Below are positions 28,966 through 30,522 of a DNA stretch of 64,000 bases, piece by piece. Position 1 is the stretch's first letter; each line of letters begins with the position of its first letter. The notes below the pieces were generated by a model. It did no database searches, was not told the origin of the DNA, and was given only the letters and a program-made list of their open reading frames with translations. The DNA is from Candidatus Eiseniibacteriota bacterium (lineage in GTDB: Bacteria > Eisenbacteria > RBG-16-71-46 > SZUA-252), in the NCBI GenBank assembly GCA_005893165.1, contig VBOR01000061.1, positions 36,555-100,554 on the forward strand. Direction: 5' to 3'. A program made the translations under genes and the position numbers.

Positions 28966-29363
28966 CCCGGAAACCGGAGTCCATCCTCCAAACACCGCAC
29001 GCGCCGGCCGCCATCGGTCCCTACGCGCAGGGCCGGACCGGTCCGCTCACGGGACGCTGGCTCGTGTCCTCGGGGCAGGTGGGGCTCGATCCCGCGTCGG
29101 GGTCGCTGGTCCCGGGCGGCATCGGACCGGAGACGGAGCGGGCGCTCCGGAATCTGGAGGCCGTGCTGAAGGCGGGAAACGCGACCTTCCAGGACGTGGT
29201 CAAGACCACGGTCTTTCTGGCGGACATGGCCGACTTCGCCGCGATGAACGAGATCTACGGCCGTTTCTTTCCCGATCCCAAGCCGGCCCGGAGCACCGTG
29301 GCCGTGAACACGCTTCCCCGGGACGCAAGAGTCGAGATCGAGGTGTGGGCATTCCTGACGTGA
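28962..29363 (+). CDS. ridA: RidA/YjgF family reactive-intermediate deaminase
   Basis: APAAIGPYAQG and the rest of the YjgF fold. GTG overlaps the glmS stop. Confidence 0.8.
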   Translation: MTRKPESILQTPHAPAAIGPYAQGRTGPLTGRWLVSSGQVGLDPASGSLVPGGIGPETERALRNLEAVLKAGNATFQDVVKTTVFLADMADFAAMNEIYGRFFPDPKPARSTVAVNTLPRDARVEIEVWAFLT

Positions 29364-30415
29364 TGCAGGCGCCGCGCGAGACGGTGCGGCTGACCGAGCA
29401 GGTCTCCTGCTCGGGATGCGCGGCCAAGCTGAGTCCCGTCGACTTGAAAGACGTCCTCTCGGTCCTGTCCGGCGCTCCCAAGGCGAAAGGGGTCCTCGTC
29501 GGCCCGGACACCTGGGACGACGCCGGCGTCTTCCGCATCTCGCCCACCCGCGCGCTGGTGCAGACGGTCGATTTCTTCACGCCCATGGTGAACGATCCGT
29601 TCGAGTTCGGGCGCATCGCGGCCACCAACGCGCTGAGCGATGTCTACGCCATGGGAGGTACGCCGACCACCGCGCTCTCGATCGTGTGCTATCCCGAGTC
29701 GGGGGACATGTCCATCCTGCGCGACATCCTTCGCGGAGGGGCCGAGACCCTGAAGCGGGCCCGCGTGGCGCTGATGGGCGGGCACTCGGTGCGGGACAAG
29801 GAGATCAAGTTCGGATTCGCCGTCACGGGGGAGGTTCATCCCAAGCGGATCGTCTCGAACGCGGGGGCCCGGCGGGGCGACCTGCTCGTGCTCACGAAGC
29901 CGCTCGGAGTCGGGATCCTCGCCACCGCCTTGAAGCAGCGGCTCCTCTCCGAGGAGCTGCTTCGCCGGATGACGGAGCAGATGACGACGCTGAACCGGGC
30001 CGCGGGGGAAGCCATGAAGGCCGTGCGCGTGAGCGCGGCAACCGACGTGACCGGATTCGGCCTCCTGGGGCATGCCCTGAACGTGGCGCGGGCCAGCCGG
30101 AAGACGCTCCGCTTCTGGAGCGCCGCGGTCCCCGTGCTCCCCGGCGTGATCGAGTTCGCGAGCCGCGACGTGGTTCCCGGGGGTCTGATCAGCAATACGG
30201 CCTACGTCGCGCCGCACGTCGCCTTCGGGGAGGGCGTGCCCGAGACGCTCCGCAAGGTCTTCGCGGACCCCCAGACCTCGGGAGGTCTCCTGATCGCGGT
30301 TCCTCCGTCGCGCGGGGACGCGCTCCTGCGGCGTCTCAAGCGCGCGAAGGTGGAGGCAGCCGTCATCGGAGAGGTTCTGGCGCGTCGCTCGCGGCCGCTC
30401 GAGGTCGCGGCATGA
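29363..30415 (+). CDS. selD: Selenide, water dikinase (selenophosphate synthetase), Cys-type
   Basis: PurM-like fold with SelD-specific motifs: VRLTEQVSCSGCAAKLSP (Cys/Lys catalytic loop), VDFFTPMVNDPFEFGRIAATNALSDVYAMGG and DPQTSGGLL. ATG 29363 overlaps the ridA stop. Size is ~350 aa. Confidence 0.85.
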   Translation: MQAPRETVRLTEQVSCSGCAAKLSPVDLKDVLSVLSGAPKAKGVLVGPDTWDDAGVFRISPTRALVQTVDFFTPMVNDPFEFGRIAATNALSDVYAMGGTPTTALSIVCYPESGDMSILRDILRGGAETLKRARVALMGGHSVRDKEIKFGFAVTGEVHPKRIVSNAGARRGDLLVLTKPLGVGILATALKQRLLSEELLRRMTEQMTTLNRAAGEAMKAVRVSAATDVTGFGLLGHALNVARASRKTLRFWSAAVPVLPGVIEFASRDVVPGGLISNTAYVAPHVAFGEGVPETLRKVFADPQTSGGLLIAVPPSRGDALLRRLKRAKVEAAVIGEVLARRSRPLEVAA

Positions 30416-30424
30416 TGGGATCGC

Positions 30425-30522
30425 GGGGACGGATGGGTTCTGGTGGATCCCGAGGACTTCAAATCCTTACGTCGGGCGCTCAAACCGTCCGAGGTGGGTT
30501 CGATTCCCACACGTTCCCGCCA
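30425..30522 (+). tRNA. selC: Candidate tRNA-Sec (selC), anticodon TCA
   Basis: Anticodon stem-loop GAGGA-CTTCAAA-TCCTT is identical in the loop to E. coli selC. It has a long variable arm (7-bp stem TCGGGCG/CGTCCGA), T-arm GTGGG-TTCGATT-CCCAC, an 8-nt acceptor GGGGACGG/ACGTTCCC (7 pairs plus one G.A), a G discriminator and an encoded CCA. It begins 10 nt after the selD stop. The minus-strand ORF across it (MGIEPT...) is the classic T-loop translation artefact. Confidence 0.65.

Follow-up and report, generated by a model that had tools for sequence, protein, structure and literature searches.

We analysed a 64-kb stretch of DNA (64,000 nucleotides of contig VBOR01000061.1; hereafter the window) from an uncultured bacterium of Candidatus (Ca.) Eisenbacteria, in which selD, the gene for selenophosphate synthetase, is followed after 9 nt by selC, the gene for a selenocysteine (Sec) tRNA with the anticodon UCA. 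The selD-selC pair is very probably a module of a functional bacterial Sec-decoding system in this soil bacterium. This is the best reading of the data because the adjacency of the two genes is conserved, the tRNA is constrained, relatives carry selD genes with a catalytic TGA, and selC has a consistent pattern of co-occurrence in surveyed genomes. In that survey, selC and selB were always found together with selA, selD and selenoproteins (Romero et al. 2005; PMC1273633), and selC plus selB is a signature of Sec decoding (PMC1273633). Each gene clearly belongs to its family, and as a pair they represent a well-known system in an ordinary form. Contigs used for comparison are referred to by L numbers.

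selD encodes a cysteine-type selenophosphate synthetase

The following features of selD were assigned.

29363..30415, + strand: selD, selenide, water dikinase (selenophosphate synthetase), cysteine (Cys) type, 350 aa; identified with TIGR00476, NF002098, AIRS/AIRS_C and Protein Data Bank (PDB) alignments
29417..29428, + strand: SelD catalytic-loop codons Cys19-Ala-Ala-Lys22 (TGC GCG GCC AAG); identified by alignment and codon comparison across relatives

The protein scored 365.9 bits against the equivalog hidden Markov model TIGR00476 (cutoff 125) and 330.1 bits against NF002098 (cutoff 299), and it fell far under the cutoffs of the paralogous families ThiL, HypE and a SelD-like fusion family. 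Pfam detected the AIRS (PF00586) and AIRS_C (PF02769) domains, and the top solved relatives were SelD of E. coli (3u0o, E=3e-69) and of Aquifex (2yye, E=8e-65). Both structures align along the entire length of the protein. The alignment with the E. coli enzyme extends over 338 residues and conserves Cys17/Lys20 and the DDA, DFF, SD and TDVTGFG motifs. The N-terminal loop SCSGCAAKLSP is collinear with HGAGCGCKISP of E. coli, which places Cys19/Lys22 at E. coli Cys17/Lys20, and it also aligns with SSGCAAKVGP of Aquifex; the Asp motifs DDAGV, VDFF, LSD and TDVTGFG align with their metal/ATP-binding counterparts in E. coli. The catalytic codon is TGC (29417..29419), and the window SelD is therefore of the Cys type. 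An earlier note on this DNA, made from the letters alone, had described a Cys-type SelD ending at 30415, and the TIGR00476 score and the TGC codon bear this out.

The naturally Sec-containing SelD of Aquifex aeolicus (2yye/2zod) shares the loop motif S-G-(U/C)-A-A-K with the window enzyme, which differs in having Cys at the Sec position and an extra Cys three residues upstream (C-S-G-C). An identical SelD protein is encoded on at least 23 soil-metagenome contigs from independent samples.

selC encodes a tRNA-Sec

ARAGORN called tRNA-SeC(tca) at 30425..30522 with the anticodon at position 35. The Rfam tRNA-Sec model RF01852 matched the same interval over its full length with 68.4 bits (gathering score 47, E=7e-12) and beat the generic tRNA model there in clan competition. 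The gene and its parts are as follows.

30425..30522, + strand: selC, tRNA-Sec(UCA), 98 nt, CCA encoded; identified with ARAGORN, Rfam RF01852 and covariation
30425..30432, + strand: acceptor stem 5' strand, 8 nt, GGGGACGG; pairs with 30511..30518, positions 1-7 standard, G opposite A at position 8
30435..30450, + strand: D arm, 6-bp stem GGGTTC/GGATCC, 4-nt loop TGGT; 100% paired across relatives, three pairs changed on both sides
30452..30468, + strand: anticodon arm GAGGA-CTTCAAA-TCCTT, 5-bp stem; anticodon TCA at 30459..30461
30472..30492, + strand: variable arm TCGGGCG-CTCAAAC-CGTCCGA, 7-bp stem, 7-nt loop; five of the seven pairs changed on both sides across lineages
30494..30510, + strand: T arm GTGGG-TTCGATT-CCCAC, 5-bp stem; first pair covaries GC->AU in L023 and L025
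30511..30522, + strand: acceptor stem 3' strand ACGTTCCC, G73 (30519) and encoded CCA (30520..30522); columns invariant in the alignments

The acceptor stem begins with the pair G1:C72 and is joined to the D arm by the linker AT. The D arm, with its 6-bp stem and 4-nt loop, has the hallmark form of bacterial tRNA-Sec and corresponds to the SelA recognition element. The anticodon loop CTTCAAA with UCA is invariant in all relatives compared. G73 and the long variable arm are SerRS identity elements, and a 13-position acceptor/T branch is typical of tRNA-Sec (PMC5389517, PMC7609411).

The earlier note had placed a tRNA of about 98 nt with a UCA anticodon ten nucleotides past selD. A 9-nt spacer is followed by the tRNA start, and both ARAGORN and RF01852 agree with the length and the anticodon; rejection of the tRNA-Sec fold by a covariance model, combined with a genome lacking selA/selB, had been named as a ground for dropping the call, and RF01852 accepts the fold with 68.4 bits against a threshold of 47. 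The 7-bp variable-arm stem, the G discriminator and the encoded CCA that it described are all present in the sequence. Two of its statements were correct in part. The extended acceptor stem does have eight positions, but the eighth is a G•A and not a Watson-Crick pair. Likewise, the anticodon stem-loop, said to be identical to that of E. coli selC, matches in the loop and the three inner stem pairs (13 nt, GGACTTCAAATCC, as in K-12) but not in the two outer pairs.

The comparison with E. coli K-12 was made against the annotated selC sequence; a blastn search of the window tRNA against E. coli genomes gave no match. The two tRNAs share the UCA anticodon, an acceptor stem of eight positions, a 6-bp D stem with a 4-nt loop, a long variable arm, a 5-bp T stem, G73 and the encoded CCA. 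They differ at acceptor pair 8, which is C-G in E. coli and G•A in the window, and in the variable arm, which is 3 nt longer overall in the window tRNA. The minimum free energy (MFE) fold of the single sequence was not a cloverleaf, as is usual for tRNAs, and support for the fold was therefore taken from comparison.

The tRNA is kept under structural constraint

Covariation was evaluated in 17 related tRNA-Sec genes over 31 pairs. Standard pairs occupied 96.5% of the pair cells, and 15 of the 31 pairs had changed on both sides, whereas only about 38-60% of the cells were paired in a control in which the 3' partners were slid by 1-3 columns. In the clade with Cys-type SelD, represented by 14 distinct tRNA sequences, pairing was 100% in the D, anticodon, variable and T helices. 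Three compensatory pairs were found in this clade: GC->CG and UA->GC in the D stem, and GC->AU in the anticodon stem (in L064 and L077). Changes fell mostly in the variable-arm loop with the stem kept, and the anticodon loop, the T loop, G73 and CCA were invariant. The identity of the flanking DNA falls to roughly 77-80% in the same clade. These patterns indicate that the tRNA-Sec is kept under structural constraint in the Cys-SelD clade, and other selenoprotein genes, selA and selB are therefore implied elsewhere in the genome.

The constraint also bears on a different explanation, in which SelD would serve only other uses of selenium (2-selenouridine, the cofactor of Se-dependent molybdenum hydroxylases, or selenoneine-type metabolites) and the tRNA would be a decaying relic left after a switch from Sec to Cys. 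The Cys-type window SelD indeed no longer needs tRNA-Sec, selA, selB and selenoprotein genes are not seen in the window, and orphan uses of SelD are documented (PMC2276186, PMC2432076). However, a relic would gather disruptive changes, and here all stem pairs are kept, with compensatory swaps, although the flanks have diverged. Neither selU/ybbB nor any other Se-pathway gene was found in the window, and the constant company of selC with selA, selB and selenoproteins in the surveyed genomes (PMC1273633) also speaks against a relic. We consider this explanation very unlikely.

Sister lineages carry a Sec-type selD

The catalytic codon of selD is TGA in L015, L050, L073, L074, L016, L017, L081, L078, L041, L129 and L132 (among others at L015:3713, L050:10046, L016:8218, L017:10040 and L041:5382), exactly at the Sec position of Aquifex SelD. 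The identity of these SelD proteins to that of the window is 69% in L015, L050, L073 and L074, 66% in L016, 50-52% in L017 and L081, and 51% in L078; L041, L129 and L132 form a group labelled 'Armatimonadetes' that also has the TGA-type selD. Homology continues across the in-frame TGA, with SCAG-U-AAKLGPEDL in the relatives and SCSG-C-AAKLSPVDL in the window. A hairpin, (C/A)U(G/A)GGUCC-GGA-GGACCU(G/A), is conserved 11 nt downstream of the TGA in the Sec-type selD genes. Its spacing and G-rich apical loop are as in bacterial selenocysteine insertion sequence (SECIS) elements.

A full-length SelD in the TGA-type relatives requires Sec insertion, and the lineage therefore appears to decode UGA as Sec. 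Judged from these UGA-containing genes, Sec decoding is active in the Eisenbacteria lineage and SelD is itself a selenoprotein in its deeper branches. The clade of the window has evidently swapped Sec for Cys in SelD and kept a constrained tRNA-Sec. Sister clades thus share the selD-selC arrangement and differ in Sec or Cys at the SelD site, which makes them a natural comparison for Sec/Cys exchange. The comparison also has value for annotation: gene callers would truncate or split the TGA-containing selD genes in metagenome-assembled genomes (MAGs).

selD and selC are adjacent and probably co-transcribed

The genes upstream of selC are tightly packed. Two further features define the locus.

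28962..29363, + strand: ridA-like gene (Endoribonuclease L-PSP/RidA family); PF01042, 126.8 bits
30416..30424, + strand: selD-tRNA spacer, 9 nt; selD stop codon at 30413..30415

The TGA stop of ridA overlaps the ATG of selD by one base (TGATG, 29361..29365). The ridA gene lies downstream of glmM-glmS in the same orientation, and glmS and ridA also overlap; a ridA counterpart of 133 aa was called at the equivalent position in 10 independent contigs. A scan of 28800..31000 for promoters and terminators detected neither a sigma-70-like promoter nor an intrinsic terminator in the selD-tRNA interval, and its single terminator-like site, inside ridA, occurs at chance frequency.

The pair is found at the equivalent place in about 30 related contigs. 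Among the Eisenbacteria-lineage metagenome loci, 19 of 22 have the tRNA-Sec adjoining selD, as do L011-L017 and L050. The three exceptions are two contigs that stop before the site is reached and L078, which lacks a tRNA-Sec within 1.5 kb. Where Eisenbacteria-lineage relatives have the pair, the spacer is 5-15 nt long. Because of the overlapping genes, the 9-nt spacer and the lack of a promoter or terminator in between, we infer that selD and the tRNA-Sec are probably made as one transcript. In that arrangement selD would be the last protein-coding gene of the glmM-glmS-ridA-selD string, with the tRNA on the same transcript; RNase P would free the 5' end of the tRNA, and its 3' end would be trimmed to the encoded CCA. 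The window also encodes an RNase P RNA of class A (63342..63705, 311.7 bits), which would be the ribozyme that matures the 5' end of the tRNA-Sec.

This organization differs from that of E. coli, where selC and selD are unlinked. It also differs from that of Aminicenantes/Acidobacteriota MAGs (L018-L049, L079 onward), which carry an operon selA-selD-selB-selC. These MAGs encode a homologous SelD (45-54% identity) and a tRNA-Sec that likewise has an invariant A facing position 8. Their four sel genes are clustered, selB being followed directly by the tRNA, whereas in Eisenbacteria only selD and selC are together, inside the glmM-glmS-ridA housekeeping string, with selA and selB presumably elsewhere.

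Downstream of the tRNA-Sec lies a conserved ORF for a 91-aa membrane protein (30552..30827), followed by a DUF5683 gene whose N-terminal part (~30880..31012) encodes a Pro/Ala-rich linker with a 12-nt imperfect repeat that varies in length between strains and contigs.

Acceptor position 8 and the register of the branch

All Eisenbacteria-lineage sequences, and those of the L041 group, have G facing A at acceptor position 8. The acceptor/T branch thus has 8+5 positions, of which the invariant G•A at position 8 leaves 12 as standard pairs. In the Aminicenantes homologues this position is U-A or C•A. The first T-stem pair covaries GC->AU (L023, L025) in homologues that also carry U8-A, and the 8/5 register is therefore favoured for the family. 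An alternative fold fits the window clade equally well, in which G8 pairs with C30510, A30511 is bulged and the T stem has 4 bp (8/4); Rfam's own alignment draws the window tRNA in this way, as 8+4 with a bulged A. Twelve-pair variants of tRNA-Sec are known as minor species (PMC5389517), and the G•A at position 8 is variation inside the known range.

The short branch raises the question of a look-alike, either a selC*-type tRNA-Cys(UCA) or an allo-tRNA, by which UGA would be read not as Sec but as Cys, Ser or some other residue. Bacteria and soil metagenomes do contain tRNA-Sec-like tRNAs that combine a 12-bp branch with a UCA anticodon (PMC5389517), and the 12 standard branch pairs and the Rfam drawing of the window tRNA resemble them, as do its long acceptor stem, tRNA-Sec-like D arm and long variable arm. 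The selC* tRNA-Cys has U73, and the forms with a dedicated CysRS have A1:U72 (PMC5389517), whereas the window tRNA has G73 and G1:C72 and its anticodon is always UCA. The 8/4 forms in that report have a bulged A51a inside the T stem; in the window the A left unpaired is located where the T stem meets the acceptor 3' strand, and the 8/5 register is supported by homologues in which U8-A occurs along with AU as the first T-stem pair. Allo-tRNAs (Mukai 2017) have 8/4 or 9/3 branches and non-UCA anticodons. In addition, the window tRNA has the 6-bp/4-nt D arm, is coupled to selD in about 30 contigs, and in sister lineages is coupled to a selD with a catalytic UGA. A look-alike is thus highly improbable, and we regard the gene as a tRNA-Sec.

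Some more speculative readings concern the same position. The Eisenbacteria-type tRNA-Sec may be a structural subclass that also occurs in the 'Armatimonadetes'-labelled lineage (L041, L129, L132). Its 12-pair branch could switch between 8/5 with G•A and 8/4 with a bulged A, and the G•A form might be tuned to the SelB/EF-Tu discrimination of the lineage. The joint reading, in which a tRNA subclass marked by G•A at position 8 is combined with a self-reinforcing selD-selC dicistron in the Sec-type relatives, seems unlikely to us. If it were true, the Sec-type dicistron would put a Sec-requiring selD mRNA and the tRNA-Sec gene on one self-reinforcing transcript, and the clade of the window would have left this loop through the Sec-to-Cys change.

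Searches for selA, selB and selenoprotein genes

As the earlier note had stated for the window, no SelA, SelB or obvious selenoprotein gene was found there. Searches by tblastn with Aminicenantes queries detected no SelA or SelB in the 64-kb window or in the fetched Eisenbacteria-lineage loci, giving only LepA cross-hits, and a scan of every TGA in the window for coding-type bias in third-position G+C (GC3) on both sides yielded no selenoprotein gene. The TGA at 15940 was rejected as a gene junction and that at 36257 as a shadow frame on the minus strand. Adjacent same-frame ORF pairs were rejected as split selenoprotein genes; every such pair is divided by a TAG and represents a normal gene junction. 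At 58.5-59.6 kb, the AhpC/TSA and DsbA-like genes were also rejected, as they match their Pfam profiles uninterrupted and are Cys forms. The 5.6 kb past the left edge of the window hold pilus genes only.

The matches to SelA in a word-indexed protein search were all Aminicenantes-like, with at least 59% identity, and an exhaustive search of representative proteins returned 150 SelA clusters without taxonomy. Two contigs, L052 and L139, were considered as belonging to the window species and rejected on their tetranucleotide signature (0.79-0.94, compared with 0.95-0.99 within the same genome). The unrelated L139 (63% G+C) carries selA-selB and then a T4_deiodinase-like gene at L139:10001..15044; selenoproteins are known in the family of the last gene.

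Several points weigh against a functional Sec system with a co-transcribed selD-selC pair. The window SelD is of the Cys type, and UGA recoding therefore has no direct proof from within the window. The trait as seen in the window is incomplete, with no selA, selB or selenoprotein gene, and the protein-database searches gave no SelA assignable to the Eisenbacteria lineage. Co-transcription is deduced solely from spacing and missing consensus signals. The SECIS-like hairpin is known from few distinct sequences, and none of its pairs has changed on both sides. Finally, with G•A as acceptor pair 8, the branch holds only 12 standard pairs.

Proposed pathway and significance

By analogy with the E. 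coli pathway, SelD with its Cys19/Lys22 loop would make selenophosphate from selenide and ATP, and SerRS would charge the tRNA-Sec(UCA) with serine by means of G73 and the long variable arm. SelA would then turn Ser into Sec with the selenophosphate from SelD, recognizing the 6-bp/4-nt D arm, and SelB would carry the charged tRNA to the UGA and its SECIS hairpin, recognizing the 13-position acceptor/T branch. The roles of these tRNA elements in the SerRS, SelA and SelB steps are reviewed in PMC5389517 and PMC7609411.

The result places the Sec-decoding trait in Ca. Eisenbacteria, an uncultured phylum of soil and sediment; no mention of selenocysteine in Ca. Eisenbacteria was found in the literature searched. 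What is known of how selenocysteine is made or inserted is unchanged by it.

Gene content and assembly quality of the window

The window has 67% G+C and is a housekeeping region. Its gene content, in three parts, is as follows.

First part: pilus genes, aroK, coaD, obg, dprA, tRNA-Phe, tRNA-Thr, glmM, glmS, ridA, selD, tRNA-Sec
Second part: 91-aa membrane ORF, DUF5683, lepA, lepB, hrcA-grpE-dnaJ, mutS2, dnaG, rpoD
Third part: tRNA-Val, ABC exporters, 2087-aa subtilase, RNase P RNA

Ca. Eisenbacteria MAGs are the nearest genomes, sharing the gene order and having 66-93% SelD identity. The interval 20911..39034, which holds selD-selC, is colinear without gaps with independently assembled metagenome contigs at 99.6-99.9% identity. 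Five segments of 133-160 nt are missing from the window and present in all of the near-identical (99.6-99.9%) contigs.

3385/3386: 160 nt missing; ABC ATPase (Walker A region)
5659/5660: about 141 nt missing; prepilin peptidase
20910/20911: 142 nt missing; dprA, segment also present in 80-86% identical Eisenbacteria MAGs
~39032 (~39031-39034): 133 nt missing; mutS2, frameshifting, segment also present in 80-86% identical Eisenbacteria MAGs
44854: 155 nt missing; rpoD 3' end, intergenic region and the first 17 nt of tRNA-Met

The five missing segments look like collapsed scaffold gaps or assembly errors and not biology, and none of them touches selD-tRNA-Sec. They are the one feature that would favour explaining the tRNA match as a chance or assembly artefact. 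Such an explanation has a negligible probability: the Rfam E value comes with ARAGORN agreeing, and the selD-tRNA stretch is identical in independent assemblies from at least 10 samples and conserved down to 50% SelD identity.

Because of the 155-nt deletion at 44854, a weak Rfam tRNA match (32.8 bits, uncalled by ARAGORN) appears at 44833..44910; it corresponds to the last (3') two-thirds of tRNA-Met(CAT), joined to the truncated rpoD. The intact contig L054 has a 581-aa RpoD followed by tRNA-Met and then tRNA-Val. In L008, lepA is split into two called genes of 251 and 341 aa (L008:12048..13853); the window lepA is intact, and the split suggests a frameshift or a misassembly in L008 itself.

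Some public MAG records are probably mislabelled taxonomically. L011 (DASQAV010000055.1) is titled 'Dormiibacterota', yet it shares synteny with the Eisenbacteria window at a DNA identity of 86-89%, and several 'uncultured Eubacteriales' MAGs (L018, L021, L033, L036) carry the Aminicenantes-type selA-selD-selB-selC cluster.

Two other loci in the window were noted. Tandem type IV pilin-like genes at 2288..2701 and 2711..3145 (N_methyl motif, GFTLIELM) are about 92% identical with identical C-termini; the pair is a recent tandem duplication that is also present in other contigs. At 50702..56965, the 2087-aa secreted subtilase (Peptidase_S8) carries fn3 and HYDIN/ASH-type Ig-like domains and a C-terminal FlgD-Ig-like domain, which may act as a sorting domain.

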